A DNA stretch of 64,000 nucleotides. Source: a virus (lineage: Duplodnaviria; Heunggongvirae; Uroviricota; Caudoviricetes). The notes below the pieces were generated by a model that saw only the letters and a program-made list of their open reading frames with translations, did no database searches and had not been told where the DNA came from. The stretch is from positions 79,774 through 143,773 of the IMG/VR virus record IMGVR_UViG_3300013901_000006. One strand, 5' to 3'. Shown in pieces: positions 993 through 51,795 of the stretch; position 1 is the stretch's first letter, and each line of letters opens with the position of its first letter. Position numbers and translations under genes: made by a program.

Positions 993-1976
993 TTAATTCG
1001 TTAACCCACAAGTACGTGCAGCGACGTCCATCTTGTCTGTGTCTGTATTACCGCAGTTAGAGCACTCCCACCACGTATTCCCATCGGTGTCTTTATGTAC
1101 ATCAATAGTCTGTGACTCGCCGCAAACGTGGCAATAGGAAGTCTTTGTATTAATCTCACAGTACATGATGTTATTATAAATACATTCTAGAATTGGATAC
1201 AGAACGGAAATATTCTTAGATACATCTGAACTTTCTACGTAACTTAGGCAACCTCCGACAGAATACTTCTGGAATTCGCCTTCAAGTTCAATCTTGGAGA
1301 ATGGGTCAATGGGTTGAGAACTCGGGATGTGATAAGAATTTTCAAAATACTTCTTGTTTCCAAATAGTTTCTTAAACTGGTCTGGATAACGTTCTTTGGT
1401 CTTAATCGCAAACTTGTAACATAATGATTCTGCTGGGGACGCATAAAGCGAATACCCTACGTTCTCTGCTTGTTTCCATTCTTCACACTTGTTTGTCAAG
1501 AACTTGAGAATTCGTAACATCAGCTCTTGTCCGTTTTTGGTGAAATTATCTTCACCAATGAGAATCTTAACTGCTTCGTTTCCTCCATTGTATCCAAGCG
1601 AGACTGTAGCATATCCATTGTGAACTAGCTTGTCTAGAGTCTCGTCTGGATCTAGTCTAGCTAAGGCTCCATCAACCCATAAGATTGGAGCTACGCCAGC
1701 TTTTGTTTTTGAAAGTCTATCAACTCGAACTTTTAGACCTGTGTGACAAATTTCAGCTCGTTCATCCAGTAATCTGAAAAAGATTTCAAGAAGATGTTCT
1801 TGAGATTTATCCCTGTCATATTTAAGTTCTTCTTGTGCGGCGAAAGCTGTATCTGGAAGATTCAGACTAGAAACGCCGCAATTGAATCGTCCATAATATT
1901 TTGGTTTACCATCTTCATCTAAATATGGAGATAGGAAACTTCTACAACCCCATGAATATTCTGTACAAAACGCCAC
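993..1976 (-). CDS. nrdD: Anaerobic ribonucleoside-triphosphate reductase, C-terminal exon (reading frame stays open upstream to ~2021)
   Basis: GCRSFL and GRFNCGVSSLNLP motifs typical of class III RNR. C-terminal Zn-ribbon cysteines and an RTCGL glycyl-radical-like motif. Frame is open upstream of the annotated GTG start. Confidence 0.75.
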   Translation of the reverse strand: MAFCTEYSWGCRSFLSPYLDEDGKPKYYGRFNCGVSSLNLPDTAFAAQEELKYDRDKSQEHLLEIFFRLLDERAEICHTGLKVRVDRLSKTKAGVAPILWVDGALARLDPDETLDKLVHNGYATVSLGYNGGNEAVKILIGEDNFTKNGQELMLRILKFLTNKCEEWKQAENVGYSLYASPAESLCYKFAIKTKERYPDQFKKLFGNKKYFENSYHIPSSQPIDPFSKIELEGEFQKYSVGGCLSYVESSDVSKNISVLYPILECIYNNIMYCEINTKTSYCHVCGESQTIDVHKDTDGNTWWECSNCGNTDTDKMDVAARTCGLTN

Positions 1977-2364: not shown

Positions 2365-3567
2365 TTAGTTTATGCAGGGGAAACAATGACCTTCGCCATT
2401 TGCATCTACCTTGATTTGCTTCATCACTTTCTCGCTGATATAATCAGGAGTTAAGCGTTTAGCAGAACATTCAACCGCTTTCTGAGTTACATGCCAGTAT
2501 TTAGTACCTGGCTTATAATTATCCTCTTCAAGAACATATAGTAGCTTAGGAAAAGCCTGAGTAACATATACACCTTGGCGATTCGGCATACCCTTTTCTC
2601 TCTGTTTTAGAAACTCTTTGATAAGAAGAACAAGTTCTTCTTTATATTCTTCTGTTTCGCCGATATACATAAATAAAGAGCAAAAAGGTGCCTGGCCGTT
2701 TAATGTAAACAGCGTTGAAATTTGATAATTAAAAGTTTGTACCGAATCTGCAATTTCTTTTTTTAAATCTGCAAGTGCAAACTTTTCTTTTAGTTCATCT
2801 GAAATATCTTCATTTTTATACTTGTTTTTGAAGATATTGTAACTATCACGAACGAAAGGAGCTAAATGAGTTAGTGTGATGGATTCTCCACCATAAGAAT
2901 TAGCTGCGACACTAGCCATAATCTGCGTAGTTACAGTCATAGCTGTTAAAAGACGATGCGGCTTATTGATGCGCACATTATTAATAACCGTGCCATTTTG
3001 CAGCATATCTTCTAGATTGATAAGGTCACAGTTATGAAGGGTTGATTGTGCCATATAATCCATATCATGTTGATGGCAGATACCAGCATCATGAGCTTCA
3101 ATGACTTTTTTAGGGAAAATATAATTGCGAGCAATATCTGTGCTTGTAATACCAGCTAGATAATCTCGTTGTACCGTAACAAGTTTAGCATTTTTATTGC
3201 TGTTCTCTGTAGCCCAATAACTTTCTGGGTCATTTTTAATCATATCAAGAATTTCAGCGTCATTATGTTTCTGACGCGCGAGTTGGTGCTCATAACGATA
3301 AATCATATAAGATTTAGCGACATGCGGATAATCTTCCATGAGCAATTCTTCAACCGCATCTTGAATCTCTTCAACAGTCATCTCATCATGGAAATATTCC
3401 GCATCTTGAAAATCTTGTGCGACATTTTTTGCTACGGAATGACAATCACTTTGTTCCCATCCAAGAGAATCAGAAACATCACGTGCCGCACGATAGACCG
3501 CATTTTCAATCTTAGACAAATCAAATTTTACTTTGCTTCCATTTCGTTTTGTAATATATCTAGTCAA
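2365..3567 (-). CDS. nrdD: Anaerobic ribonucleoside-triphosphate reductase, N-terminal exon (ATP-cone + N-terminal catalytic half)
   Basis: 400 aa. N-terminal ATP-cone-like region (VKFDLSKIENAVYRAA). Continuous with the downstream NrdD fragment on the same strand. Confidence 0.75.
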   Translation of the reverse strand: MTRYITKRNGSKVKFDLSKIENAVYRAARDVSDSLGWEQSDCHSVAKNVAQDFQDAEYFHDEMTVEEIQDAVEELLMEDYPHVAKSYMIYRYEHQLARQKHNDAEILDMIKNDPESYWATENSNKNAKLVTVQRDYLAGITSTDIARNYIFPKKVIEAHDAGICHQHDMDYMAQSTLHNCDLINLEDMLQNGTVINNVRINKPHRLLTAMTVTTQIMASVAANSYGGESITLTHLAPFVRDSYNIFKNKYKNEDISDELKEKFALADLKKEIADSVQTFNYQISTLFTLNGQAPFCSLFMYIGETEEYKEELVLLIKEFLKQREKGMPNRQGVYVTQAFPKLLYVLEEDNYKPGTKYWHVTQKAVECSAKRLTPDYISEKVMKQIKVDANGEGHCFPCIN

Positions 3568-4498
3568 TACTTAATCCTTTCTCTTGGTGAATAATCTTTA
3601 ACATATCTTCAATATTTGATTGTAAAGGATAACGGTTGATTGATGTAGAACTCGCGGCAAATTCTTGTTTAACCATATCAACATACATTGTGCTTCTACC
3701 ATCTTCGCCCATATAGAACTGCTTGAATTCTTCTGGTGTCATCAAAGATTGTACATCGATTTGCTGTAACGCAAGATTATCAAATGAAATATTCTGGAAC
3801 CATTTCTCTTCAATCATTCGCGGCAGAGTATTTTGGATATATGCTTGATTGGCTTTAATGTCTTCACCAGCTTGCATTAAATAATTTGTTCCACGTCCAA
3901 AGTTTTTATATCCAAGAATCAAGATTTTTAAATTATGGTGCGCCAAAGACTCTAGTTCATCTTTTGTAACAATTCCATTGATTACATGGACAACAATATT
4001 TGAATTATTCTTGGCCGCATCGATAAATTGTTTACTTGCATGATTTAAAGAAATACCGATACCATAAATTAATTTTTTGTCCGATAGCTCTTGAATAAAA
4101 GGAATATTCTGCATAAAATGCGTTTGATTAACAGTAATGGATGGAATAAGTTTTAATTTTCGGCACTTATATAGGAACTCTTCCAGGTCTGGATGTGTCA
4201 TAATGTCTCCACCACCACAAGCTATTTGAGTGTATGGATGAAGTGAATCGATAAAAGACTTAGAAAGTAAATCACCATGCAACCCATCTTTTGTTGACTT
4301 TTCATGGCAATAAGGACACCCTTTATAGCACCTGTTCGTAATTTTAATATCCATTGAATCTGGAAATTTTGGCCGCAATTCATCCTCTTTTGTATAACGA
4401 ATCATTGTACCATCATTTAAATTAAGCATTACTATATAATTACCATTTTTATATTTTACAATATTAATGTTTTTATCCATCATATCCAAAAAGTCCAA
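3560..4498 (-). CDS. Radical SAM domain protein (function unknown)
   Basis: CYKGCPYC matches CxxxCxxC near the N-terminus. 312 aa. Confidence 0.45.
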   Translation of the reverse strand: MDFLDMMDKNINIVKYKNGNYIVMLNLNDGTMIRYTKEDELRPKFPDSMDIKITNRCYKGCPYCHEKSTKDGLHGDLLSKSFIDSLHPYTQIACGGGDIMTHPDLEEFLYKCRKLKLIPSITVNQTHFMQNIPFIQELSDKKLIYGIGISLNHASKQFIDAAKNNSNIVVHVINGIVTKDELESLAHHNLKILILGYKNFGRGTNYLMQAGEDIKANQAYIQNTLPRMIEEKWFQNISFDNLALQQIDVQSLMTPEEFKQFYMGEDGRSTMYVDMVKQEFAASSTSINRYPLQSNIEDMLKIIHQEKGLSID

Positions 4499-24152: not shown

Positions 24153-26234
24153 CTAGAGCTTAGTCCCTCGTCCACCCTTATTTGCTATTTTACCTGTAAA
24201 GTTTTGCGGCTCAGTTATTGTCATGGATACAATCTTATCATCATCGTCTAGCTTAATGCCGCACATGCCGCCAGACCTGATACTACTTGCTCGCACACTA
24301 TCTGCCTTAAAACTAATCTCTCTCTTGGAAGAGGTAAGTGTTACGATACACCCATTAGTCTCTTGGATAGATACTATATCCACATCAGTTTTAGCGGCAA
24401 CGATTCCACGCTTATTGCGCACACCTTTAGCAAATTGTTTTCCTTCACACTTTTTAACTTTGCCATCAGCCATAGCAAACATAAGATAAGGCTTACTATC
24501 GCGGAAATAGCTATCGTGCGCATAGATAATTTTTTCATCCTTATCTAAATTAATGATAGCGCCAATTGCTGTACCCTTATCCTTTGGGCCGCACTCTTTA
24601 ATATCCGCAGGTGAAATACGGTAAAACTTACCCTTATTTGAGAATAGAGCAATCATCCTATCTTCTGCAATGCTAAATGCAGCGAAACCGTTATTTTTGA
24701 ATTTAGAAGGAGAAACCTTTTGTAGATAACCAAGAGGATTAAAAACAATTACGAAGTTCCTAATTTCCTTTGAAGCAGAAGACTTGGCTTTCTTTGTCTT
24801 TGTAATCTCCTTTTGGACTACTTTAGTCCGACGAGGAGTACCGTATTTTTTATCCATATCTTTCAGCTTTTTTAAAAATACTTTATCAAGTTCTTTTTTA
24901 TCATTTAAAATTAAATCGCATTTTGCAATAATTTCGTTCTTTTCTGTTAGCTCTTTTTCAATTGATTGCGTATCCAGTTTAGTCAGCTTCATTAACGGCA
25001 TTGAAAGAATTGATTTGATTTGCTTATCTGTAAAGTTAAACTCATTTTTAAGCCCATTTGCCGCATTAGCTTTATTATTTGAACCGCGAATAATCTCAAT
25101 GATTATATCAATATTCGTTAAGGCAAATTTTAATCCCTCTAAGATTTCTTTTCTTTGAGCCGCGAGATTCTTATCATATTCAGCTTCGCGTTTAAGGCAC
25201 TCAAAACAATGAAACAAGTATTCATCAACTGTCTGCTGTAGATTTAATAAAACAGGAGTTTTACTGATAATGCCATTCTGATTGACATTATACTGTGACC
25301 TTAAAGGTGTTGACTGAAATAGCTGCTGCAATACTTTTTCTGCCGCATACCCTCGTTGACATTCTACAACTAAAGCAATGCCATTCTTATCACTCTTATT
25401 ATATACATCTTTAATGCCAATTAAATCTTCTGATTCGATTAGCTCTTTAATCTTTACAATTAAAGGTTCAATGTATACTTGATATGGCATTTCAGTAAAA
25501 GTAATTTCGTTGCCGTCAATAGTATATGTAGCTTCTACAATTACTTTACCTTTTCCAGTTTCATTGATTGAAGATAATTCATCCTTATTGACGATTGTAC
25601 AGCCAGTAGGAAAATCAGGGTAGTATTCCTCTGCTTCAAATTTACCAGTTTTAACGTACTTACCGATTAAGTTAATGGTTTCTTTAAGGTTGTGCGGCAA
25701 CCAATTATTTGCAATTGAAACACCGATACCTTGAGCGCCATTGACAAGAAGTCTAGGAAAATATGATGGTAATACTACTGGCATATATTCATCTTCGCTG
25801 AAATTCAAAACCATTGGAACTGTATTTTTTTCAATTCCATTTAACATGAATTCTTCTGTGATTTTAGAAAGACGCGCTTCTGTATATCGGTCCGCAGCAA
25901 TTGCGTCTCCGCCCAAAATTACGTTACCATTTGCACCATGGAAATCAACCTCTGGTACATTGTTTGTAAAAGGCTGAGACATGCGTGCGAAAGTTTCATA
26001 AATCGCTTGAGTGCCATGAGGCCAGTAGAGCGCCGCAACGCCTCCATCAATCTTTGCCGATTTAACGTGTGGTTTGTCGCTGGTATATTTTTTAGTGTAC
26101 ATTTCCCACAAAATACATCTTTGACCCGGTTTTAATCCATCTTTTACACTTGGAAAAGCCCTGTTACAGTTTACATCATATGAACTATCAATAAAATTTT
26201 GTTGAACAACTTTAACAAGATTTGATTTATTCAA
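24153..26234 (-). CDS. Type II DNA topoisomerase, A-type subunit (GyrA/ParC / T4 gp52-like)
   Basis: PSVKDGLKPGQRCILWEMY (DGLKP motif around the active-site Tyr region). 693 aa. Confidence 0.8.
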   Translation of the reverse strand: MNKSNLVKVVQQNFIDSSYDVNCNRAFPSVKDGLKPGQRCILWEMYTKKYTSDKPHVKSAKIDGGVAALYWPHGTQAIYETFARMSQPFTNNVPEVDFHGANGNVILGGDAIAADRYTEARLSKITEEFMLNGIEKNTVPMVLNFSEDEYMPVVLPSYFPRLLVNGAQGIGVSIANNWLPHNLKETINLIGKYVKTGKFEAEEYYPDFPTGCTIVNKDELSSINETGKGKVIVEATYTIDGNEITFTEMPYQVYIEPLIVKIKELIESEDLIGIKDVYNKSDKNGIALVVECQRGYAAEKVLQQLFQSTPLRSQYNVNQNGIISKTPVLLNLQQTVDEYLFHCFECLKREAEYDKNLAAQRKEILEGLKFALTNIDIIIEIIRGSNNKANAANGLKNEFNFTDKQIKSILSMPLMKLTKLDTQSIEKELTEKNEIIAKCDLILNDKKELDKVFLKKLKDMDKKYGTPRRTKVVQKEITKTKKAKSSASKEIRNFVIVFNPLGYLQKVSPSKFKNNGFAAFSIAEDRMIALFSNKGKFYRISPADIKECGPKDKGTAIGAIINLDKDEKIIYAHDSYFRDSKPYLMFAMADGKVKKCEGKQFAKGVRNKRGIVAAKTDVDIVSIQETNGCIVTLTSSKREISFKADSVRASSIRSGGMCGIKLDDDDKIVSMTITEPQNFTGKIANKGGRGTKL

Positions 26235-26631
26235 TATTCGCTTCCTCCAAATGTTTATTTAAAAATTCTACACGCGGTTCCACCTTTTTACCATATAGGT
26301 CATTAAATAGATTATTTGTTTTATCAATATCTTCAACTGTTAATAAACTAATATTTCTAGTTGAGGGGTCTAATAAGCAGTAAGATAATTCGTCAGCATC
26401 TTGTTCGCCTAACCCTTTCATCCTAGTAATTGCTTTAACGTTGTTTGGATGTTTTTGTTTATATTGCTGTAATGCTATATCATCCTTTAAGTATACATAC
26501 TCATTCTTCTTCGTAATAACTCGGAAGAGTGGAGGTTCAGAACTATATACATGACCATCTAAAATAAGTTCTGGGCAAATATACCAAAAAATATTAAGCA
26601 TTAAGTTTTCAATTGCGAAACCATCAAAATC
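26227..26631 (-). CDS. Type II topoisomerase large (GyrB-like) subunit, exon 2 (C-terminal Toprim tail)
   Basis: The frame upstream of the annotated Met reads DFDGFAIENLMLNIFWYICPELILDGHVYSSEPPLFRV. This is the GyrB DVDGSHIRTLLLTFF...GHVYIAQPPLY block. Confidence 0.7.
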   Translation of the reverse strand, partial: DFDGFAIENLMLNIFWYICPELILDGHVYSSEPPLFRVITKKNEYVYLKDDIALQQYKQKHPNNVKAITRMKGLGEQDADELSYCLLDPSTRNISLLTVEDIDKTNNLFNDLYGKKVEPRVEFLNKHLEEANIE

Positions 26632-27934
26632 CAGTTATTCTTATATTTCTATAAGCCCTGACTATCTCTTATTGTATTTATATACAAGATATTATTTCAA
26701 ACTATGTATCAATAATAGTTTTACTCGCCCGATTCGGCGATAGTCGATACAACCTTATTTGTGAATCCATTTATGAGTTTTTTTAGAATAAATAGGTACA
26801 TTAGTATAAGTTTTTCCAGTTAGCATCTTTTGAAAAGATTCTCTAGAAATACGTTTATCTGTATTTTCATAGATGTCTTTATAATTTTTTGAAACATATT
26901 GCTTTCTAAATTTAAGCACTTCTTCATCAGAATAAGCATTTGTAGTATATCTATTAGAATTATCTTTTACTCTATTAGAGTTTTTTTCTGGTTGCTCTCC
27001 CGGAAAAATCCATTTATTTGTTTTTTTATGAAAATATGGCAAATGCTTATTTGTTCTTCCGCATAATATACCTTGAAATGCTTCATATGTAATAATGTCT
27101 TTATAATCTCCATAAAGCTCTTTTGCCTGCGCTCCTGCGGCATATTTCTTTCTCGCGACCATTATTTGTTCTTCTGTTAATTTAGAAGTAACTTTTACAC
27201 CAGCCATTTTTTTATAATAATTTTTGTTATCTTTAGTATATACTTCTGGCATTATTTCTGCCCAAGTTTTACCTTGCCACACAGCTTGAAAAGTACCAAA
27301 AGTAATCTTATCTTTTACTGATTCATACGCTTCTTTTTGTGTAATAAGTCTTTCATTGTAACACTTACGAATAAACATTACATCAGATACAGATAATTTA
27401 GCTCTTGGATTTTCTTCTCCACGAGAGCCGCAATCTCCACCTCTGTTGCAATTATATCCTTCTTCTACCGCATTAGTTTTATCAATCCAATATGCTTCTA
27501 ATTCATTTAGTTCTTCTACGGAACATTCTTGAAGAACAATCAAAGAGAAGTTTTCCTTCCCATATTTATGTATCGCCCAATCAACAGGAATGTTGCTTTG
27601 CTTATATCTGCTTGGAGAACAATGTTCAACAAATCGTCTATCTATATCATTACTTTGTCCAACATAAAACTTGCCATTTATGTTATTAACTATCTTATAA
27701 ATACCTATCATACTTTACACCTTTCTGTATCTTTGAAAGGCGTTAGATTCACAAAATTTGTCACGGGATTGCCATGTTATAAATATATAATTTAGGTTTC
27801 CCCGTTAGCGCCTATCAACTTGAACACCATCTATATCTAATATGAAAGCTATCATACCACGATTATAATATTTTGTCAAGAAAAATAAGCACCCTATTGA
27901 TTAATAGAAAAATATCACACAGCCAATTTTATTT
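26632..27934 (-). mobile_element. Probable group I intron carrying a GIY-YIG homing endonuclease, inserted in the TDA|DFDG motif of the topoisomerase large subunit
   Basis: Exon 1 ends IITATDA followed by K-stop. Exon 2 resumes in frame with DFDG. The last exon-1 nt is U and the last intron nt is G. Contains the free-standing GIY-YIG ORF 26755-27711. Confidence 0.55.
26755..27711 (-). CDS. GIY-YIG homing endonuclease (intron-encoded)
   Basis: MIGIYKIVNNINGKFYVGQSNDIDRRFVEH. Repeated C-terminal modules typical of HEG DNA-binding regions. Confidence 0.75.
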   Translation of the reverse strand: MIGIYKIVNNINGKFYVGQSNDIDRRFVEHCSPSRYKQSNIPVDWAIHKYGKENFSLIVLQECSVEELNELEAYWIDKTNAVEEGYNCNRGGDCGSRGEENPRAKLSVSDVMFIRKCYNERLITQKEAYESVKDKITFGTFQAVWQGKTWAEIMPEVYTKDNKNYYKKMAGVKVTSKLTEEQIMVARKKYAAGAQAKELYGDYKDIITYEAFQGILCGRTNKHLPYFHKKTNKWIFPGEQPEKNSNRVKDNSNRYTTNAYSDEEVLKFRKQYVSKNYKDIYENTDKRISRESFQKMLTGKTYTNVPIYSKKTHKWIHK

Positions 27935-29440
27935 AGCATCTGTAGCAGTAATAATTTTATCATATCTTAGTTTAGATTTATCATAAATGCATTTTGCATT
28001 TTTAGGATTGAACTCTAAGCCAAGAGCCTGAATTAAATTATTAATTTCTTGATTCTTTATAATGTTTTCTTGTTTTGTTTTTAATACAGAAAGCATTTTT
28101 CCTCTAACTCCATAAACAGCTTGGAACTTAGAATCTCTGCCCGCAACCATATTTGATGATGCGCTTTTGCCTTCTGTCAAATATAACTCGCAAATAGAAC
28201 GGTCTTTTGACCAACAATCGGATAAACTTGTTGGCATTTTTAGGAAATTATTACCACGCTTCTTTTTATTTTTAACCGCTGCGCGAGCTTTCTTCGCTGC
28301 TTCTGCCGCACGTTTAGCAACAATGGCTTTCTCAAGAATGGCTTTTGCATCTGTTGGATTATTATCTAACCACACTTCAAGCTGTTCACCAAAAGTAGAA
28401 GTAAAAGATGTATCTACATCAATAATATCATCTTTAACTTGCGCGTTATATTTAACGCCTTTACTATCGATATTACATACAAGAATTAATCCTTCTTGAA
28501 TTGCCGCACCATCTAGATTCTTTTCTTTGTCTTTAAGAAGATTATTTGCTCTAGCCCATGAATTAAATACGCGGGTTAACGTTGATTTAATCCCTGTAAT
28601 ATGCGGCCCAGACGATGTTAAACCATAATTTACATATGAGACAATCTTAGATTGACTACTGGATGTAAAAGTCATGGCAAGACGAATATTATTCTCATTC
28701 ATCACAAAATGATTTGAAATAATTTCGGTATCATTGCCACGTTTTTCATCTAGCATATCTTCGATACTATCATGTGTTATTTCAATACCATTTAAAACAA
28801 CTTTAAGAGTAGGACAAATACACGTAATATCATTAAAGAACTTTTTGAAATGTGCAATAGACGTTTTATCTGTACCAAAATACTGTCCATCTGGTAGGTA
28901 TTCTACATATGTACCAGAATGTCCTTCATCAATACCAGAATCATGTTTAATGATGATACCATCTTTGAATTCAATCTGTTCGTATTTACCATCACGAACC
29001 GTTCGTGCTTTAAGATACTTTGAAAGAAACGTTACAAGTTTTGCACCCAATCCGTTAAGTCCAAGACTAGACCCTTCATAGACCCCATCATCAGTATATT
29101 TACCAGATGTATTCATAGTATCAAAAGCAGCCTGAAACACAGTCTTACCATCATTACGTTTTTGGTTTACAAGAAAACCTTGCGCATAATCTTGGATTGA
29201 ACATACACCAGTTTTATCATCAATAGATACTTCAATTACGCTGCCATGACCGATATTATGTTCATCTAACGCATTGCTGAATAGTTCCAACATTAACTGA
29301 TTTGGAGTAGATGTGTCGCCGCAGTACATTGATGGACGTTTACGCACATGCTCACGTGGAGTTAGTGATTGAATTGAATCTTCCGTATAAGAATTGCTTT
29401 TTAAGTTACTTCTCAAATTACTCTCCTTTCTTTTATACAA
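27935..29440 (-). CDS. Type II topoisomerase large (GyrB-like / T4 gp39-like) subunit, exon 1 (ATPase + Toprim)
   Basis: SYTEDSIQSLTPREHVRKRPSMYCGDT (GyrB N-terminus). LMLELFSNALDE ATPase lid. Ends ...IITATDA. Confidence 0.8.
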
Positions 29441-29930
29441 GCATTATATCAAATATCATTTATTTTGTCAAATAAAAAAGCGCAAGATAGGTTTTTCTAT
29501 CTTGCGCTTAACCGTAATCTATTCTGATTGATTAACTTGTTTATTTAATTTTTCACGTGTCTTAATCTCATTCTCACAAAAAATATGAAAATTATTTTTC
29601 ATATTCTGATACCTCTTTTGCTCTCGCCTATATTGTTCATTAATCATCTTTGCTTCACGGCAAGCAACATTGAAAGCATCCATACCATCCGCCGCATTCA
29701 TTTCACCAAGAGCAGATACAATATGATTGACTCCCTCAGCTCGTCCCTTCATAACCTTTAGACGCTCTGCGGCCATAGCCAAACGATTCTTATAATCCGC
29801 AATTTCCCAACCAATCCACTTATTGGCATTTTTCTTGTCCTCTTGGTCTGGTGCCGCATAAGAAGTAAACATTCCCCATTTAGACGAACGAGTTACAGTT
29901 GCAACTTTAGTATCATCATCCCAAGAGCAA

Positions 29931-41236: not shown

Positions 41237-41311
41237 GGGCCATTAGCTCAGTTGGATTAGAGCCTGAAACTTCTATTTTCAAAGTCGCGCGTTCGAGTCG
41301 CGCATGGCTCA
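41237..41311 (+). tRNA. tRNA-Arg (anticodon TCT)
   Basis: Hand-folded cloverleaf. Acceptor GGGCCAT/ATGGCTC. D arm GCTC-AGTTGGATTA-GAGC. Anticodon stem TGAAA/TTTCA with loop CTTCTAT. T arm GCGCG-TTCGAGT-CGCGC. Confidence 0.75.
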
Positions 41312-41625
41312 CTTAGTAGACTGGCAATCAGTTAGTCTACGTTATTTAAAACAGCATTTTGAAAGGATTTATTGTGAAAATTCGTGATTGGGAAGACTTC
41401 GATGAAGAGGATAACTTTGAAAAATTTTCCCATAAGACAAAACTAATTCGCCAGCGCAAAGATGATACTTACAAAAGTAAGCGTCGTGAGAAGCGTGAGC
41501 GTCAAGAATTTGAAGAAAATGCTGCGAAGGGCGGGGAGTAATTCCTGCCTTTTTTTATTATAAAAAATAGTTGCCATTTGCCGCATAATCATATATAATA
41601 TATTTACCAAAAGAAAGAGGTAAGT

Positions 41626-42561
41626 ATGAATGAAGTAGATATGCTCCGCAATGATTCTCTTGTGCGGGAAAAGGATTTGGGAAACGGAATCTCGTCTTTC
41701 AATTTTTCCAATAAGTGCTTTTGGGATAAGAAGTGGACTACGGAGTCAATCAAGGCTCGCGGATTATTCTGTGATGTTAAAAATAACAATGTTGTTGCAC
41801 GTTCTTATAATAAGTTTTTCAATATTGGAGAGCGTCCTGAGACTGAAATGCGGAATCTTCGTACTACTTTTGCATATCCTGTGCAGGCATATGTGAAGTA
41901 TAATGGTTTTTTGGCAATCGTCTCAGCAGATAAGGATAATCCCGATAAGTTGTTCATCGCATCCAAGAGCACTAATGAAGGCCAGTTTGCGGGATACATT
42001 AAAAACATTATTAACTCTATGTTGAGCGAAGATGCGCAAAAGGATTTTGCAAACACCTTGCATAATCTTAATATCTCTGCTGTGTTTGAGTGTATTGACC
42101 AAGCGCATGACACGCATATTGTAGAATATTTCAGTCCGCATTTAGTTATGCTTGATTGTATTTATAATTCCTTTGAATATAAGCACATGTCATATGAGAA
42201 TATGAGAGAATTTGCATGTAAGTTTGGTTTTTTGTTTAAGGTTCGTTTTTCCATTTTAACAGATTGGGAAGATTTTACAAGTTTTATTGATTGGCATAAG
42301 GATGATAATGGGATTGAAGGATTTGTGTTTGAAGATGCTAATGGGTTCATGGTAAAGTATAAAACTTTATGGTATCGTTACTGGAAGCAGGTGCGTGGCG
42401 TTTTGCAGCAGGTCTGGAACGGACGTGATATTGATTCAATCAAGAATATCAATAACAAGATTAAGCCAGAGCACAAGCAGCCGCTTCTTGATTTCGTAGC
42501 TTCATGCCGCAATCGTGATGCGTGTCCATCAGTAATTGAATTCCGCAACTCTTTATCTTAA
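41626..42561 (+). CDS. RNA ligase of tRNA-ligase (Trl1/KxNG) type
   Basis: Motif I VKYNGF (K-x-N-G). Motif IV IEGFVFE. Motif V VKYKTLWY. 311 aa. Confidence 0.5.
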   Translation: MNEVDMLRNDSLVREKDLGNGISSFNFSNKCFWDKKWTTESIKARGLFCDVKNNNVVARSYNKFFNIGERPETEMRNLRTTFAYPVQAYVKYNGFLAIVSADKDNPDKLFIASKSTNEGQFAGYIKNIINSMLSEDAQKDFANTLHNLNISAVFECIDQAHDTHIVEYFSPHLVMLDCIYNSFEYKHMSYENMREFACKFGFLFKVRFSILTDWEDFTSFIDWHKDDNGIEGFVFEDANGFMVKYKTLWYRYWKQVRGVLQQVWNGRDIDSIKNINNKIKPEHKQPLLDFVASCRNRDACPSVIEFRNSLS

Positions 42562-43108
42562 TTTTAGTTTGACTCTTGGTATAATATATTATATAATATA
42601 ATTGTTCCAAGAGAGGAAAGGAAGTTATATGACTGCTACTTACACTACCGCCGTTCTTCGTCTCGCCAGCTATTACGTGGACAATAAGGATGATATTACC
42701 GGAGATTATATTGATGGGGCAGTTATGACTATCAGTAATGTCTATGGGGTGCGTGACGAGCGCATTCGCCGAGACATGTATAAGATGATTGACATTTTGA
42801 TTGATGGAGAGTAAAATGCTTTCATGGAATTGGGATATTAACAATCCTATTCGGCTTGGTATGGAGGACGAGCATATGCAGGAAAGCGTTTACAAGTGTA
42901 TCCAAGAGTTCGAAAATGAATATATGGGGCATCCATCTTGTGAAGAGTTTGAAGATACCTTGGAGCGCAACGGTATTGACCCGTCTGACATGCCTAATTG
43001 CTATTGGAACGATTTAGCTCAATATCTTTAATTCTATGGGAGATTGTCTATTGACAGTCTCCCTATTTTTTTATATAATATAAAAAGTATATATTGAAAG
43101 GATGATGT

Positions 43109-43921
43109 ATGATTAAACTTGCAATTCCCTTTCAATTGAATGGAGAGTTAAATGATGATGTAAAAGAATTCAATATTCTTTTTTATAAATCTCGAAATTC
43201 AATTGAAGATTTGATTGAATTCGTTCAAGAGTATGAGGATACTCGCATTAATCTGGAATTCCCAGAAGGAATTCATATGCCGACAGTCAAATCAATTAAT
43301 AAAGTCTCTGATAATATTTATATTAAGGTTGCTCCTGCGGATATTCTTAAAGTTGTAGAGCTTAAAGAAAATAATTTTAAATTCTTTTTTAATCAAGATA
43401 TGCCGGTATCAACATACACAGCACTTGATGCCTTTTTCCGCATGGGTGTATCAGACGTATACATTGCAGATGACTTGTGCTATAATTTAACAGAAGTGCG
43501 GCAAATGTGTGAAAGTCATAACGTACAAATGCGGCTAGTCCTTAATAAGATTCCATGCACTACTTTTGACCGTGGAGTTAATCCCAAGAGTCCAATCTAT
43601 ATGCCTAAAGACTTTGAGCTTTTGGATGGATATTTTGATGTATTTGAATTTGAGTGCGGCCTACCGTATGACTGGGCTAAGTTCGATGTTCTATATCGAG
43701 CATGGTTTATCAATCATTATTGGCATGGTCAAATGAGCGAAATAAATGAAGATGTAGACCAGAATTTTCATTGTGACGCAATCCATCCTGATTTTACCCG
43801 CAATAAACTAAATTGTGAACGTAGATGCTGCAAAAGGGTGTCAAATAATTGCCGCAAATGTGAAGATTTTCTTGAGCTTGGTGAAGTATTGAAAGCTAAG
43901 AGAATTCGATTTACAAATTAA
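43109..43921 (+). CDS. Hypothetical protein with Cys-rich C-terminus
   Basis: 270 aa ORF with CERRCCKRVSNNCRKCEDF, behind a terminator-promoter cassette at 43040-43090. Confidence 0.35.
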   Translation: MIKLAIPFQLNGELNDDVKEFNILFYKSRNSIEDLIEFVQEYEDTRINLEFPEGIHMPTVKSINKVSDNIYIKVAPADILKVVELKENNFKFFFNQDMPVSTYTALDAFFRMGVSDVYIADDLCYNLTEVRQMCESHNVQMRLVLNKIPCTTFDRGVNPKSPIYMPKDFELLDGYFDVFEFECGLPYDWAKFDVLYRAWFINHYWHGQMSEINEDVDQNFHCDAIHPDFTRNKLNCERRCCKRVSNNCRKCEDFLELGEVLKAKRIRFTN

Positions 43922-44016
43922 TTGGGCAAATGATTATAAACTTTTGCCCATATTTTTTATAAATATATAAGCAATCGTCTAACTGTCGTATAGGATTTAA
44001 GGAGAATTTTATTCAA

Positions 44017-44796
44017 ATGACAATCATTAAAAACAGGGCAACGAAAGCATTGGCCTATGGTGTATCTATTTTAGCCTTGGCCGGAGTGACAAATGCTTAT
44101 TGCGCTTCAAACGCAAGCGCTATGTCCAACGATGAAATCTTAGCTGCGGCTACTCGTGAAATCAAAGTTGAAACCATGTTCAAATATAAAGAAGATGGAT
44201 ATGATAACGCGCAAAGTTGGCTGGTAGATAAGATTAATATGCAAACCCAGCAGCAAGACCAAGTAACAAGAATCATTCAAGATTATGGAGATTATCTAGA
44301 TTTAAATGAGATTTCTCAAATTCAACAGATTATGGAAAAGCAATCTGTGGCAACTAGTATCTCTGAATTAAAGCAGTATAAAGCTGAACTTGATAAATGG
44401 TCACAGTATGGTGCCGATAAAAAACAAAAAGCACTCCAAGAGAAGAAAGAAGCGGAAGAGCGCGCGGCACAAGAAGCATTAGCGGCAGAGCAGGCAGCAC
44501 AACAGGCCGCAATCGCTCAAAATGTGCAAACTATTTCATATAGTAATACCAATGCAAATACTTCTTACTCTTGGTCTGGTGGCAGCGCGAAAGATTTTAT
44601 CGTAAGCAAAGAAAGTGGCGGTAATTATAATGCTACCAACGGTAGGTTTTTTGGCGCGTATCAGTTAGATATATCCTACCTTAATGGTGATTTATCGCAA
44701 GAAAATCAAGACCGTGTTGCCGAACAATATGTAAACAATAGATATGGCAGTTGGGAAAACGCTGCCGCACATTGGCAGTCTAACGGTTGGTATTAA
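44017..44796 (+). CDS. Secreted protein with C-terminal Rpf/transglycosylase-like domain
   Basis: Signal/TM segment ALAYGVSILALAGVTNAYCAS. Coiled-coil middle. C-terminal SKESGGNYNATNGRFFGAYQLDISY resembles the ESGGN...G..G.YQ lytic-transglycosylase-like fold. Confidence 0.45.
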   Translation: MTIIKNRATKALAYGVSILALAGVTNAYCASNASAMSNDEILAAATREIKVETMFKYKEDGYDNAQSWLVDKINMQTQQQDQVTRIIQDYGDYLDLNEISQIQQIMEKQSVATSISELKQYKAELDKWSQYGADKKQKALQEKKEAEERAAQEALAAEQAAQQAAIAQNVQTISYSNTNANTSYSWSGGSAKDFIVSKESGGNYNATNGRFFGAYQLDISYLNGDLSQENQDRVAEQYVNNRYGSWENAAAHWQSNGWY

Positions 44797-46023
44797 GAAA
44801 GTAGTTGACAATATTTGAAATGTTTGGTAATATATTATTGAAAGTTAAGAAGTGGGCAATTCCAGTAATTGCCGCATTAATCGTTGTGGTTGGGGGCCTA
44901 ACAGTATGGGTTAACACTACCTTCCAAGGTCAACTTTGGTTCGACAAAATGACAAATCAAAGAACTCCACCTCCTGAGAATCACTGTATCAGGGTGTATT
45001 CCGCAGGAGAGCTCGTTGGAGACTATGATGGACATTATTCTGTAGAACAATTTGATGACCACATTGTTCTTATCAATCATGATAAACATGATGATAAAAC
45101 TGAAATCTACGGTGAAACCGCAGTGATTGTAGACGAAGATTAAAAGGAGAAAATTAATGGTTGAATCTTATGGTATGAATTTTAATGCTGCACTAACGCA
45201 GGATAAAGATGGTAAGGTGTCTCTTGGTGTACACGTGACCGATTCGGACGGCCTGGATATTGACAAGAATGAATCTGGCAGCGATATTCCAAAAGTCATT
45301 GAAAATCTTTGCAGTGGTCTGATTAAAGACCTAACAGTTGTATCTAATGGCCGCAAAGCCAAAAAGGAGAAGGAAGATGCGGAGAAGCGTCGTGCGGCCA
45401 AAGCTGAGAAGCAGAAGAAGATTGCAGACCTTAAAGCACAGGCAGAAGCTCTACAAAAAGAGATTGCCGCACTGGAATCTGAAAAAACGTCCTCCACGCC
45501 CAAGACTACAGTGAGTGCTCTAGATTCACTTTCCAAGGACTTTGAATCTCTGCTGGACGATTCAACTATGAAAATTTTCCGCAAGATGCTGTTCTAAAAT
45601 TTATCTTGCAAACCCATATATAAAGTTATATAATATACTTAAAGAAAAGGAAGGAGATACAGGATGTTCGTAGGTGACAAGTTTTATAACATTGATACGG
45701 AACGCGACTTTGACGCTTGCTTGAAAGAGAACGGTTTCGACCCTGCGGAAATTAAAAACTATGCTATCTCCTTCCACGTTTCTAATCGCGCATGTTGCGT
45801 AGAAGGCCTACTTGGTGACGATTGGGCGGAAGTATCTCATGCGATTCAACAGGAGTGTGATGACTTGCGGAATGAGGTGGATAACCTTGAATCTCGTTCT
45901 CGCAAAGGCAATACTCGTGCTGACATTGCTAAACGTCTTAGCACTATTCTTGAGAATATTTATGACCTTGCTTTATCGAATCAAATTTATGACCCCGATG
46001 AACTTTAAGTAATATTTTTTTCT

Positions 46024-46052
46024 TGACAAAAAGGAAAATTAACTATATAATA
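46024..46052 (+). promoter_or_regulatory. Consensus TTGACA-17-TATAAT promoter feeding a ~100-nt transcript ending at the 46120-46165 terminator
   Basis: TTGACA aaaaggaaaattaacta TATAAT. No ORF before the downstream hairpin and T-run. Confidence 0.55.
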
Positions 46053-46119
46053 TATTTGAAATCTTTGGACAAAGATGTATAATTTTGTTGTACAACTTTT
46101 TATATTATATAGTGGTGCT

Positions 46120-46165
46120 AGAGCCTACAGTGTTCCAGAAATATTGTAGGCTCATTTTTCTTTTG
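46120..46165 (+). terminator. Intrinsic terminator (GAGCCTACA...TGTAGGCTC + TTTTTCTTTT)
   Basis: 9-bp perfect stem followed by a T-run. Confidence 0.6.
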
Positions 46166-46170
46166 GCAAA

Positions 46171-46240
46171 GCCAGTTTAGTATAACAGTAATACATCGCT
46201 CTTGTAAAGCGAAGCAGACAGGGCAGCACTGTCAACTGGC
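46171..46240 (+). tRNA. tRNA-Thr (anticodon TGT)-like gene with non-canonical D- and T-loops
   Basis: Perfect acceptor GCCAGTT/AACTGGC + TCCA. D stem GTAT/ATAC. Anticodon stem TCGCT/AGCGA with loop CTTGTAA. T stem GACAG/CTGTC, but the T loop is GGCAGCA and the D loop lacks GG. Confidence 0.45.
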
Positions 46241-46481
46241 TCCAATATTTTAGTATTCTATGAGGATAATATAAAAGGAGATTCGACCACTCCAAGCAAT
46301 GCACTTGTATTATTCTCATAGAGTGCTAACCTTAGACACTCTCCAAGTGATAGTAGAGCGGAATTTGACCCCGTCTGTGCTATCCCAAGTTATAAGCGAT
46401 TCGGGCAGTCGCTATACAAATTTGCCCACTTTAGATTATTAGATAGGCTACATAGGGAGTAGCTACCTCATGGAAAAGTGA

Positions 46482-46537
46482 ATATCCACCACCTGCCTAT
46501 CTATTGTATTTAGTGGATAGGAAAGTGTGGATATATG
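46482..46537 (+). promoter_or_regulatory. Stable hairpin sequestering the RBS and start codon of the HNH endonuclease gene
   Basis: ATATCCAC...CCTATC-loop-GATAGG-AAAGT-GTGGATAT. The 3' arm ends at the ATG (46535). SD-like AGGAAAG lies inside the 3' arm. Confidence 0.5.
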
Positions 46538-47260
46538 CTTAAATGTATTATTTGTGAAAAAGATTTTGTTATTAGACCAAATGGTAAAATGGGCGGGGCA
46601 AATCGTCAAATTTGTTATAATTGCTTGCCTGAAGATATTAGTTCAAAACAAGAAAGACGAAAAGCTACGAATTTTCTTATTAGTCAAAAGCTTCAAAAAG
46701 AAAAAACAAGTCGTGGCTGCGATATTTGTGGTTACAATAGTTGCGGAGCAGCATTAGAGTGGCATCATTATAATAGCGATAAAGATTTTAATCCAAGTGC
46801 TATTCCAGTATGCAATTGGGAAACATTGAAGAAATATCGTAAAGAAACTCAAAAATGTCAATTATTATGTGCAAATTGCCATAGAGAAATACATTATAAA
46901 AAATATTGGGGAAATTTTATTATGCCAATTGATAGTGGCCAAAGTGAAAATTTCAGAAAAGAAGTTTGTGATTATTACAAAGAAAACCTAAACATAAATA
47001 AAACTAGCGTTTATTTCCATAAAAATCGCGAAACAATTAAAAATATTCTGCTGTATTGTGGAGTTAAGATAACTAAAGAAGACAATCATAAATCTGTCAG
47101 TATGATAAATATTAAAACAAATGAAATTATTAAAACATTTTACAGTTTAAATGAAGCTAGTGATTTTTTAAATAAAGGTAAAGGTGGCATTACCCATATA
47201 TCTGATGCTTGTTCCGGGAAAAGAAAGACTGCTTACGGGTACAAATGGCGTTATGAATAA
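46535..47260 (+). CDS. HNH homing endonuclease
   Basis: Zn-ribbon CIICEK...CYNC. HNH core EWHHYNSDKDFN...CANCHREIHYKKY. Confidence 0.7.
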   Translation: MLKCIICEKDFVIRPNGKMGGANRQICYNCLPEDISSKQERRKATNFLISQKLQKEKTSRGCDICGYNSCGAALEWHHYNSDKDFNPSAIPVCNWETLKKYRKETQKCQLLCANCHREIHYKKYWGNFIMPIDSGQSENFRKEVCDYYKENLNINKTSVYFHKNRETIKNILLYCGVKITKEDNHKSVSMINIKTNEIIKTFYSLNEASDFLNKGKGGITHISDACSGKRKTAYGYKWRYE

Positions 47261-47343
47261 TATTTTTCATTTTTACTTTTAAAAATTATTTGACAAATTA
47301 TCAAATAATTTGATATAATATAGTTAACAAAAGGAGAAACACT

Positions 47344-47500
47344 TCTTTTGAACATAGGGTTCCTAAACCAAAAGAATTAGGTGCGGCTTAAGGTTTCAGA
47401 CTACAGATAAAAGAAACTTAGTGATTAAATAAATGATGCGAAAGAACGTCTGAAAAATCACGATTAAAATATGGTTTGCGGTTATCCTAAAACCGCACCT
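47344..47500 (+). ncRNA. Candidate structured small RNA (~160 nt) closed by a 10-bp long-range helix and U-tract
   Basis: UUAGGUGCGG (47374-83) pairs with CCGCACCUAA (47488-97). Internal helices UUUCAGAC/GUCUGAAA and GUGAU/AUCAC. Followed by AAAUUUUUC. Promoter at about 47293-47321. Confidence 0.4.
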
Positions 47501-47857
47501 AAAATTTTTCTTGACTTCTAGTTGAGAATAATGTACAATATATTTAGAAGAAAAGGGGGGAAAAGGATAGTCAACAGTACCATCAACAAACCAGTGACCC
47601 TGCGGCGAATATTAATGAGCCAATACCCATAAGATGTAATATCGAGTACGCTGTTAGGTTGATTAAATTTTTCTTCCAAATAAGTTTAAACGCCAAGAGA
47701 AAGAGGTAAAATGGCACAGTCTATCGAGTCTATGGAGCAGCGTTATCAGATGCTTATTAACCGAAAGGGTAAGAATTCAGAAAATGTAGGCATTATGCGC
47801 AAACTTCGCCGCAAGATTAACAAGGCTAAGTCAGGTATCATTCTTTCTTAATTTTAT

Positions 47858-47980
47858 ATGCGTGATAGGGATTCAGTTACTTCATATCAATAGCAGAGAT
47901 ATAGGCTGTCGGTTCGAATCCGACCATCTACGGATGTAGCTCAACAGGTAGAGCGATGTCATTTTATAGTCTGAATCCAA
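47858..47980 (+). ncRNA. Y-RNA-like tRNA-like RNA, copy A (closing helix + T-arm + acceptor-like hairpin + D-arm)
   Basis: 5' box AUGCGUGAUAGGGAUUCAGUUACUUC. GGAUUCAG (47869-76) pairs with CUGAAUCC (47971-78). Enclosed: GUCGG-UUCGAAU-CCGAC, CUACGGAUGUAG, and GCUC-AACAGGUA-GAGC. Confidence 0.5.
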
Positions 47981-48204
47981 GATTTCCGCATATTTTTTCT
48001 TGACTTTTGGTTATATATATTATATAATATATTTAGTTCAAAGGAGATAACATGAAATACTGCATTTGCCGTGAAAAAACTACGCATTGCCTGTCTATTC
48101 GAGTTGATACTGACTGCTCGCCTGTACGCTTTGATGTACTTTCCATTCATGACACTTTCGAAGAGGCAGATGCGGCACTTCGTTTTTATCTTGATTAATC
48201 TATT

Positions 48205-48290
48205 TTATAGATAGATTAATTTGAACATTCCGCAGCCAGAGCCAATCTGGACCGCCGCATACTTGAAAGGAAGCGGGTTTGAATGTTTTA
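48205..48290 (+). ncRNA. Candidate small structured RNA between a 48-aa ORF and tRNA-Lys
   Basis: Terminal pairing GAACAUUC/GAAUGUUU encloses hairpins CCAGA-gccaat-UCUGG and CCGC-N14-GCGG. Speculative. Confidence 0.25.
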
Positions 48291-48291
48291 T

Positions 48292-48364
48292 GCGCCCTTA
48301 GCTTAGTTGGTAAAGCGGTGGACTCTTAATCCAAAGACCGTCAGTTCGAATCTGACAGGACGCA
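48292..48364 (+). tRNA. tRNA-Lys (anticodon CTT), two non-Watson-Crick pairs
   Basis: Acceptor GCGCCCT/AGGACGC (C4·A69). D GCTT-AGTTGGTA-AAGC. Anticodon stem GTGGA/TCCAA (G27·A43) with loop CTCTTAA. T arm GTCAG-TTCGAAT-CTGAC. Confidence 0.5.
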
Positions 48365-48379
48365 CCTATTTTATTTCGC

Positions 48380-48452
48380 TCGTCTGTAGTTCAGCTGGTA
48401 GAACATTTGGCTGTTAACCAAAATGTCGTAGGTTCGAGTCCTACCGGACGAG
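48380..48452 (+). tRNA. tRNA-Asn (anticodon GTT)
   Basis: Acceptor TCGTCTG/CGGACGA. D GTTC-AGCTGGTA-GAAC. Anticodon stem TTTGG/CCAAA with loop CTGTTAA. T arm GTAGG-TTCGAGT-CCTAC. Confidence 0.7.
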
Positions 48453-48465
48453 CAAAATAAAATAT

Positions 48466-48494
48466 TTGACAAAATCATTTCGGTAGTATATAAT
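48466..48494 (+). promoter_or_regulatory. TTGACA-17-TATAAT promoter for a ~150-nt non-coding transcript
   Basis: TTGACA aaatcatttcggtagta TATAAT. No ORF until 48683. Confidence 0.5.
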
Positions 48495-48499
48495 ATAAA

Positions 48500-48655
48500 T
48501 ATAAAATAACAAGTCTTCAAGAATCTTAACTCATACGGTTTGGCCGTCGATAGAGGAACTACTAAGGACGGGACACCTGAATGCTAGCTAATACAGGGAG
48601 CAGACAGCCAGTATTGTTCTTGATGTAATCGAATGAGCTATCTTGTTGTTTTATA
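48500..48655 (+). ncRNA. Candidate structured small RNA (~150 nt)
   Basis: Ends pair (AUAACAAG / CUUGUUGUUUU) followed by a U-tract. Internal helices CCGUC/GACGG, CUCAU/AUGAG, GCUAGC. Confidence 0.35.
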
Positions 48656-49349
48656 TTTATATTATTGGTCGAAAGGTTTCAAATGAAATTATATCTGAAA
48701 CACTATACTAACAAAATTTTATGGTCAGAGCCAAAAGATGATGATGAAGCATATAAAGATATTCAAAATTGGTTAACAGAACATTATCCAATTAATCATT
48801 ATATGCGGCATTGGGTAGATAATGCTGGTGTTCATTGGATTGATTTTGGTTCGCACACAGATTTCTTTTGCATTGAAGGAGAGTAGGCAATGTCTTACAA
48901 CAAGGAAGAAGATTTGAAGTTGAAATACGCTTATATTCCCGATGATGCGGCAAATGCCCCTGCTTCTAAAAAGAAGAAGCCGTCTCCTAAGAAAGCCAAC
49001 CATAAACATAATTATGATAAAAGTATTATCATCAATTATTATGATAAATATACTGGTAAGTGGACCTATTCATATAGGAATATCTGCACTGTTTGCGGCC
49101 GCATTGGTGATTTTAAAGATAAAGATGGAATCATCGCAAAGACTTTCCCGCACATCGGTACTTGTTGGTTTGGCTTTTCTGTTGCTTTTGGATATAATGC
49201 AGAATTTGAGGAGTTTACCGAATGGTCAAAAACTTGGTATCCTGTAATTGTTTGGAAAGACTATCAGCCTTTATCAGATAAGTTTATTCCTAACGAGTTT
49301 TTTGATGAACTTAAAATCGGAACAGATAAAGTAGATTAATAATGTACCT

Positions 49350-49434
49350 CGGGAGTTGATGGAATTGGCATACATAGCGGCCTCAAAAGCCGTCGGTTAT
49401 TGTAACCATACGAGTTCGAATCTCGTACTCCCGA
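49350..49434 (+). tRNA. tRNA-Leu (anticodon CAA), class II with long variable arm, CCA encoded
   Basis: Acceptor CGGGAGT/ACTCCCG-A-CCA. D loop GAATTGGCATA. Anticodon stem GCGGC/GCCGT with loop CTCAAAA. Variable arm GGTTA-TTG-TAACC. T arm ACGAG-TTCGAAT-CTCGT. Confidence 0.7.
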
Positions 49435-49442
49435 CCAGAACT

Positions 49443-49525: not shown

Positions 49526-49541
49526 CCAATTGTATTTTATA

Positions 49542-51790: not shown

Positions 51791-51795
51791 TACTT

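Follow-up and report, generated by a model that had tools for sequence, protein, structure and literature searches.

A probable mobile group I intron carrying a GIY-YIG endonuclease gene within the Toprim motif of a phage type II topoisomerase gene

The stretch of DNA analysed here, referred to as the window, comprises 64,000 nucleotides (nt), positions 79,774 to 143,773 of the IMG/VR record IMGVR_UViG_3300013901_000006, a virus of the Caudoviricetes. On its minus strand, together with the other genes of the locus, lies a gene for the large subunit of a type II topoisomerase (GyrB/ParE-like), which is interrupted by 1303 nt containing an endonuclease gene. The upstream open reading frame (ORF), from 29440 to 27929, encodes 503 amino acids (aa) and covers the ATPase domain, the transducer and the first two thirds of the Toprim domain, with Pfam matches to HATPase_c, DNA_gyraseB and a truncated Toprim. 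Its first 502 codons form exon 1 (27935..29440, minus strand), defined from the ORF list, the sequence and Pfam; exon 1 ends ...IITATDA with ACA GAT GCT (T D A), and AAA TAA (K, stop) follows. Immediately after the 1303 nt segment (26632..27934), the reading frame terminating at 26227 gives DFDGFAIENLMLNIFWYICPELILDGHVY... and forms exon 2 (26227..26631, minus strand), 134 codons that start DFDGFAIENLMLNIF... and match Pfam DNA_gyraseB_C, the GyrB C-terminal domain. Exon 2 opens at 26631 with GAT TTT GAT GGT (D F D G), and the first ATG in its frame (MLNIF..., 26601) lies ten codons inside it. An intact GyrA-like gene (26234..24153) overlaps the end of exon 2 by 8 nt. Within the interrupting segment, an intact 957 nt gene with its own ribosome-binding site (26755..27711, minus strand) encodes a 318 aa GIY-YIG homing endonuclease.

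An earlier note on this DNA had read the locus in much the same way, with an upstream ORF running out at ...IITATDA, K and stop, a downstream frame resuming the motif ahead of its annotated Met, and a split inside the TDADxDG motif, and each of these details is borne out. Joining 27935 to 26631 (predicted ligated junction ...ACAGAUGCU joined to GAUUUUGAUGG) gives a single frame of 636 codons, and the Pfam Toprim match lengthens from positions 1-65 of 96 (30.5 bits) for exon 1 to positions 1-92 of 96 (45.7 bits) for the joined exons. Aligned with ParE of S. pneumoniae, the joined protein is gapless over the junction (YDKIITATDADFDGFAIENL versus YDKIIIMTDADTDGAHIQTL). The insertion site therefore falls between the Ala and first Asp codons of the Toprim metal-binding motif, TDA|DFDG. 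As the earlier note had also observed, the last nucleotide of exon 1 is U (27935) and the last intervening nucleotide is G (26632); a boundary after U and before G-GAU is the only placement that obeys the rules for group I introns. Without splicing, the essential acidic residues of DFDG would be lost, because an in-frame TAA two codons upstream of DFDG leaves no usable start codon.

Searching IMG/VR with the spliced protein yielded 18 loci (designated here by L numbers), and at ten of them the gene is uninterrupted at this position. The two closest intron-less loci, L001 (91% amino-acid identity) and L002, were read directly as ...ACA GAT GCA|GAT TTT GAT GGC..., which in L001 stands in the sequence ...ATTACAGCAACAGATGCAGATTTTGATGGCGAAGCG...; intron-less relatives thus read TDADFDG unbroken exactly where the window gene is split. 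In seven loci (L004-L008, L017 and L018) the same insert occupies this place; over the whole 1.9 kb compared, nucleotide identity is 88-90%. Taken together, the empty alleles and the carriers fix the insertion point to within one nucleotide. It should be noted that the first codons of the intron translate as K*NWLCNIFLLIN (window 27934-27890, with equivalents in L005, L006 and L017), resembling ENLMLNIFWYI of exon 2. This likeness, which is probably due to chance, lets tblastn run about 20 codons beyond the splice site, and similarity-based boundary calls were misled by it. In carrier contigs, the tblastn segments that carry exon 1 on to residue 526-534, passing the stop codon into the intron, were rejected as artefacts.

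The similarity between the window and the seven carriers is unevenly distributed along the gene. Exon 1 proteins are 52-78% identical to that of the window and exon 2 proteins 93-95%; for L017 and L018 the values are 58% and 52% in exon 1 and 94-95% in exon 2. Carrier nucleotide identity is 0.51-0.58 over the first kb of exon 1 (L017/L018). It climbs to 0.90-0.96 some 200 nt before the intron and keeps this level across the intron and the first 100 nt of exon 2, beyond which values of 0.84-0.89 hold for the remainder of exon 2 and 900 nt into the GyrA-like gene. Against the intron-less locus L001, the window shows 98-100% identity over all but one tract, which extends from about -340 to +620 nt relative to the junction and has only ~75% identity; in this tract of ~960 nt of flanking exon the window matches the other intron carriers instead. 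As judged from these alignments, the identity pattern is the signature of acquisition by double-strand-break repair with co-conversion of the flanking exons. Homing with such co-conversion is established for the introns of phage T4, including that of td (review). The window and L001 provide a clean example of exon co-conversion and a ready pair of donor and recipient sequences.

The same site is also occupied in more distant relatives. In L032 the insertion lies at ..IIMSDA|DVDGAHIKNL and the endonuclease has decayed to 72 aa, whilst in the Logan contigs L139-L141 it lies at ..AADA|DFDG and the endonuclease (L139) is a full-length orthologue, 54% identical to that of the window. The occurrence of intact, diverged and decayed endonucleases at one site fits the usual life cycle of a homing element. 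ORFs of 141 aa beginning METQES(L/P)DFDG were considered as a possible T4-style start ahead of DFDG, and were rejected as gene-caller starts inside the P9 hairpin of the L139-type intron.

Parts of a group I core can be recognized on both sides of the endonuclease gene by the Rfam model Intron_gpI (RF00028). Scanned alone, the 5' part (251-nt scan) gave 21.9 bits (E=0.001) over model positions 60-145, corresponding to P4-P5-P4'-P6, and the 3' part alone gave 13.4 bits (E=0.22), corresponding to P7 to P9. Relatives were sought by the P4 motif ACGGGGAA-N-CAAUCCCGU, a search pattern drawn from the T4 td sequence. This motif was present in more than 120 viral contigs, nine of which share the whole 3' architecture of the insert. 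An ORF-deleted alignment of 16 sequences (alignment A1) was assembled from eight window-type copies and eight more distant ones, and it underlies the pairing statistics given below.

The noncoding flanks of the endonuclease ORF, 223 nt and 123 nt in length, show conservation and form a covarying group I core, IA2-like with P7.1 and P7.2 (26632..27934; all elements lie on the minus strand, and the window coordinate of intron nucleotide i is 27935 - i). An internal guide sequence, AAAAUUGGC (27922..27930), was read from the sequence and is complementary to the ligated junction GCU|GAUUUU. P1 is formed by exon GCU and intron AA with UUGGC, placing a U.G wobble at the splice site; in every one of the 16 sequences the P1 columns pair, a CG/GC swap included, and the U.G pair (column pair 9/23) is invariant in 16/16. 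P10 pairs the 3' exon GAUUUU with AAAAUU, and in L032, where exon 2 starts GAUGUA and the guide has AUAUU, P10 is kept by a matched change. The 5' strand of P3, GAUAUU (27911..27916), pairs with AAUAUC (26693..26688), with compensatory changes in six of seven P3 pairs. It is followed by hairpin A in a P2-like position (CUAUU-AAUC-AAUAG, 27894..27907), in which 91.6% of cells pair and three pairs are compensatory. J3/4 (CUA, 27808..27806) precedes P4-P5-P4' (ACGGGG AAA CC...GG CAA UCCCGU, 27763..27805), the element matched by Rfam and by the motif search. The 5' strand of P6 (GAC, 27760..27762) pairs with GUU (26753..26751), and the loop of ~1 kb between them contains the endonuclease gene; GAC/GUU in the window-type copies is replaced by GGG/CCU in relatives, giving two compensatory pairs.

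In the 3' domain, J6/7 (GUAUC) and the 5' strand of P7 (GACUA, the R element) occupy 26741..26750, are invariant in the family and are aligned by Rfam, and GACUA pairs with UAGUC (26664..26660). P7.1 (UCGCC/GGCGA) and P7.2 (AAACUAU/AUAGUUU, with the conserved loop UAUUGAUAC) lie at 26699..26740 and are defined by covariation: 100% of cells pair in P7.1, with three compensatory pairs, and 98.2% in P7.2, with six. The region 26660..26693 contains the 3' strand of P3 (AAUAUC), P8 (UUGUAU-AUAA-AUACAA), J8/7 (UAAGAGA) and the 3' strand of P7 (UAGUC, the S element). The intron closes with the P9 hairpin (CUUAUA-GAAA-UAUAAG) and the tail AAUAACUG (26632..26655), the terminal G of which, at 26632, is the omega-G. 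In P9, 96.9% of cells pair and five pairs are compensatory; the L139 stem, for example, is CUUGUG/CACAAG. The suspicion in the earlier note of a group I intron with a GIY-YIG homing endonuclease thus finds support in the placed P1-P9 core, the match of the guide to the junction and the family of the encoded protein, and comparison with intron-less homologues leads to the same insertion point.

The structure tested on the alignment comprised P1, hairpin A, P3, P4, P5, P6, P7, P7.1, P7.2 and P9, a total of 54 pairs in ten helices with the P3/P7 pseudoknot included, and the controls were versions with the 3' partners slid by 1-3 columns and 500 shuffles. Standard pairs filled 91.7% of cells in the structure as written versus 35-46% when slid, although such cell counts are inflated because the structure was partly derived from these sequences and eight of the 16 rows are close copies. 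Kinship and circularity weigh less on the pair-level counts and on the slid controls. Thirty of the 54 pairs were changed on both sides as written versus 10-15 when slid, the covariation score was 0.421 versus 0.055-0.113, and none of the 500 shuffles reached any observed value. Most compensatory changes are found in P3, P7.1, P7.2, P9 and P6; P4 and P7 are invariant and so uninformative for covariation.

Besides the inflated cell counts, a number of observations weigh against interpreting the segment as a spliced group I intron. An Rfam scan of the whole 4.5-kb region at E<=1 found no Intron_gpI match and only a chance PYLIS match, and neither half of the intron alone reached the RF00028 gathering score of 50 bits. 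A search of 5.8 billion proteins found no product joining exon 1 to a window-type exon 2. The exonic part of P1 is only 3 base pairs (bp) long. The 5' strand of P3 follows directly after P1, and two hairpins lie between it and J3/4; we therefore term the intron IA2-like, and assign no subgroup, because it departs from the canonical order P1-P2-P3-J3/4-P4. The window copy has a 77-nt insert in its 5' domain, which in the window-type copies takes the place of the second hairpin between P3 and J3/4. Finally, a competing helix, AGGCGCUA/UAGCGCCU, can form and could bury J3/4.

The absence of a full Rfam match is explained by the 957-nt ORF in P6, which splits the model. At its gathering threshold RF00028 also misses three introns of this structural type, namely the ORF-less intron of L119, that of L123, which has a P6 loop of ~145 nt, and the copy in L112 (~3530-3850), where it did detect a different intron 300 nt away. 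The model is thus insensitive to this intron subfamily. The AGGCGCUA/UAGCGCCU helix was left out of the canonical core, as it would bury the conserved J3/4, and was kept as a possible alternative conformer. Two manual candidates for P3 were also discarded. The 5' segment of the first (AUAUUAU, intron nt 64-70, with AUAAUAU) belongs to a covarying local hairpin, and its 3' segment instead pairs with GAUAUU at nt 19-24; the 3' strand of the second (UCAAGUU/AGUUUGA) is the conserved P7.2 stem.

The endonuclease that the earlier note had placed in the segment matches Pfam GIY-YIG (PF01541, 3.9e-13) and, over residues 2-205, the NCBIfam family TIGR01453 "group I intron endonuclease" at 90.3 bits (cut-off 56.05). 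The topoisomerase gene and the endonuclease gene each have candidate expression signals. Upstream of exon 1 is a predicted sigma-70-like promoter with 12/12 agreement in a consensus scan (TTGACA-17-TATAAT, extended TG; 29443..29471, minus strand), directly preceded by a terminator-like hairpin of 13 pairs and a T run (29509..29478, minus strand). The combination of terminator-like hairpin and perfect promoter suggests that the topoisomerase gene has its own transcription unit. The second-best sigma-70-like site of the region, with 11/12 agreement (TTGACA-17-TATGAT, extended TG; 27851..27879, minus strand), lies in the 77-nt insert and is a putative internal promoter for the endonuclease. A hairpin at 27870..27850 overlaps this site; the hairpin is closed by U-A in two copies, by C-G in five and by the mismatch C.A in one. 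A transcript from the internal promoter would lack P1 and half of P3, and could therefore serve only as endonuclease mRNA. A further possible hairpin of 9 bp, ACGCCUUUC-N9-GAAAGGUGU (27717..27743, minus strand), may hide the Shine-Dalgarno sequence of the endonuclease; two G-to-A changes among copies turn G.U into A-U.

We consider it very probable that the segment is a mobile, IA2-like group I intron that is spliced from the transcript of a phage topoisomerase large-subunit gene and spreads by endonuclease homing. The sequences themselves show the exact insertion, the covarying fold, the family of the endonuclease and the recombination tract, and we infer from them that the intron is spliced in vivo, that the internal promoter is used, and that the endonuclease is active, with its cleavage site. 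Transcription from the promoter of the topoisomerase gene would run through the intron, the RNA of which would fold into the group I core, with the guide AAAAUUGGC aligning the GCU end of the 5' exon and the GAUUUU start of the 3' exon. Two guanosine-dependent transesterifications would then remove the intron and restore the 636-codon frame. The gene in the P6 loop would make the GIY-YIG endonuclease and is probably also served by the internal promoter; RNA started there, missing P1 and the 5' strand of P3, would be unable to splice. In a mixed infection, the endonuclease would be expected to cut intron-less topoisomerase alleles, and repair from the intron-bearing copy would transfer the intron together with flanking exon sequence, resulting in homing and co-conversion.

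A more far-reaching possibility, which we put forward tentatively and regard as rather unlikely, is that the intron represents an undescribed IA-type architecture, characterized by a P3 5' strand placed after P1, an insertion platform between P3 and J3/4, a promoter module and a ribozyme/messenger switch. The platform would hold two hairpins in the relatives and, in the window, the 77-nt module with its strong sigma-70-like promoter. Internal-promoter transcripts would be dedicated, unspliceable endonuclease mRNAs, and the AGGCGCUA/UAGCGCCU helix, together with the hairpin at the ribosome-binding site, could switch the RNA between ribozyme and messenger. Separately, the DxDxD codons of the Toprim domain would on this view count as a hot spot in the type II topoisomerase genes of phages, with intron splicing, ribosomal bypass and split subunits as three solutions that invaded it independently.

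Of the explanations that dispense with an active intron, the one that survives best, though we think it improbable, is that the gene was split by a free-standing GIY-YIG cassette and is translated as two separate polypeptides, which assemble afterwards with no RNA splicing, as with T4 39/60 and mobA or Aeh1 nrdA and mobE. The stop one codon past the junction, the promoter-like site inside the segment and the separate 124-aa downstream ORF called in many genomes would all suit such an arrangement, and split topoisomerases do work in T4 (papers). However, the downstream ORF starting at MLNIF loses DFDG, and no start codon precedes DFDG. Nor are there added N- or C-terminal tail peptides, as conserved in T4-type splits, or a take-off/landing codon pair, and the 223- and 123-nt flanks form a covarying group I core that a free-standing cassette would not need. 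A T4-style split is disfavoured by the missing DFDG-keeping start, the missing tail peptides and the conservation of the flanks as a ribozyme.

Slightly less probable still is that the group I intron has decayed and no longer splices, leaving the topoisomerase gene a pseudogene or dispensable. Members of the family do decay, as the 72 aa endonuclease of L032 illustrates, and one optional helix of the window copy contains a C.A mismatch; this copy also has the 77-nt insert in its 5' domain and a short P1. Its core elements are nevertheless all intact (P3, P4, P6, P7, P7.1, P7.2, P8, P9, J8/7 and omega-G), both exons keep open frames and conserved residues, and the exon 2 protein is 93-95% identical among carriers. 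The endonuclease ORF is full length, and exon 2 is overlapped by an intact GyrA-like gene downstream. A dead intron is unlikely with core elements, both exons and endonuclease all in this condition. Inteins and the bypass cassette are known in topoisomerase or gyrase genes near this motif (papers), but either of these, like a group II intron, can be set aside almost entirely on reading frames, domain searches and length, as the insert is out of frame with stops right after the junction and throughout, has no Hint domains (Pfam scan), no reverse transcriptase and no group II match in Rfam, and at 1303 nt is far above any known bypass gap.

Structural relatives of the preferred group I intron, ORF-less or ORF-bearing, were found in other genes (L053, L058, L080, L103, L104, L119, L123 and L134). 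None of the inspected records of relatives annotates an intron, and the exons are called as separate genes. Megablast and blastn searches of 50,697 phage records returned no intron relative beyond short endonuclease fragments. A piece of the same intron 5' core was noticed in a cultured phage, Enterococcus phage VRE9_3 (L143, PP680569.1, 135717-136624), adjoining what is, at 36% identity, the endonuclease's best database match; the record labels the two a hypothetical protein and a homing endonuclease and lists no intron.

Several further insertions were seen in the window and in related phages. A second insertion occurs in the same topoisomerase gene of related phages at the conserved motif RMKG|LGEQ (L007 7006-8093, L003 5698-6728 and L010 3165-4194), with its own GIY-YIG ORF (249 aa in L007) and flanks that share the architecture of the intron described here, with the guide GGCCCUU, hairpins A and B, GUAACGACUA, a P7.2 loop CUAUUGAUAC, AAAUAGUC and a GAAA-capped P9. 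L007 carries both topoisomerase introns. In the window itself, nrdD, encoding anaerobic ribonucleotide reductase, has an ORF-less group I intron at 750-1078 (minus strand; Rfam 56.3 bits versus gathering 50), just after ...DVAARTCG, at the glycyl-radical motif; T4 nrdD (sunY) also carries an intron. A second gap in nrdD, at ~1985-2370 (minus strand), separates a 400-aa N-terminal ORF (3567..2365) from a 327-aa ORF (1976..993) and contains the group I core motifs UAAACGGAG...CUUACCGU, CCUAACGACUAGUCC and AUGAUAUAGUCUAAUC. This gap had no Rfam match at the gathering level, and is probably a third intron in the window. Seven tRNA genes (Rfam) form a phage tRNA cluster at 41237-51962 (plus strand). 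The window has a G+C content of 35.6%, and the longest related contigs are 140-148 kb.

The practical consequence of these findings concerns annotation. In many genomes of uncultured phages (~140 kb), gene callers break this essential gene up into a "GyrB" cut short, a "homing endonuclease" and a small protein labelled "GyrB C-terminal", and recognizing the intron restores one enzyme in the annotation. RF00028 has a blind spot here, as the subfamily is missed even when it has no ORF. Phage genes of DNA metabolism are classic hosts of group I introns with GIY-YIG endonucleases, and the element described here is a known kind of selfish element; what is new is the host gene and site, and the subfamily to which the intron belongs is widespread, unannotated and poorly detected by Rfam. 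No report of such an intron in a phage topoisomerase II or gyrase B gene was found in the literature searched, an absence limited to that library.

The T4 td intron with I-TevI, a group I intron of subgroup IA2 with a GIY-YIG endonuclease in its P6 region, is a close parallel in kind. Both introns interrupt an essential phage gene of DNA metabolism and encode an endonuclease of TIGR01453, and we take the P4 sequence of td to be ACGGGG...CAAUCCCGU, as in the window intron, with the endonuclease ORF looped out from P6. The host genes differ, thymidylate synthase for td versus the topoisomerase large subunit here. Outside the core motifs the nucleotide sequences show no detectable similarity, and the C-terminal region of I-TevI is unrelated in sequence to that of the window endonuclease. 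As a further difference from td, the candidate internal promoter of the window intron is sigma-70-like and lies upstream of P4.

The 3' domain can be compared with that of orf142 intron 2 of Staphylococcus phage Twort, an IA2 ribozyme with a crystal structure. The Twort intron (orf142-I2, AF132670) has the same 3' order and common linker motifs: GYAACGACUA (J6/7 and P7), P7.1, GUA, P7.2, CGAAAUG, P3' and P8, then J8/7 ending AUAGUC and a GAAA-capped P9. It differs in having no ORF and in lacking the conserved P7.2 loop UAUUGAUAC. In Twort, moreover, P2 precedes P3 and P3 abuts J3/4, whereas here two hairpins lie between them.

Conceptually, the nearest known system is the T4 element gene 39/mobA/gene 60, which combines an HNH endonuclease with a 50-nt translational bypass cassette. 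The earlier note had set the window gene apart from this arrangement, and the distinction holds for mechanism, since T4 relies on a free-standing mobA and translational bypass; the link between the two was understated, as the T4 bypass cassette site is only 9-12 nt downstream of the window intron site. All bypass cassettes lie at the Asp45 or Gly46 codons, invariant Toprim residues (2022 preprint). In both systems an endonuclease-driven mobile element that moves flanking sequence along has struck the same Toprim metal-binding motif of a phage topoisomerase II large subunit. They differ in outcome, two polypeptides and a ribosomal hop in T4 versus what we believe to be RNA splicing here, and in endonuclease family, HNH in the type case versus GIY-YIG. 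T4-type splits have conserved tail peptides, of which the window gene has none. The short distance between intron site and bypass cassettes implies that the same few codons have been colonized by elements that repair the damage differently. With an intron here and the gene 60 bypass in T4-like phages, both in the same ~12 nt that encode the invariant acidic Toprim motif, the two systems offer a natural comparison of how mobile elements neutralize their own insertion in an essential active site.

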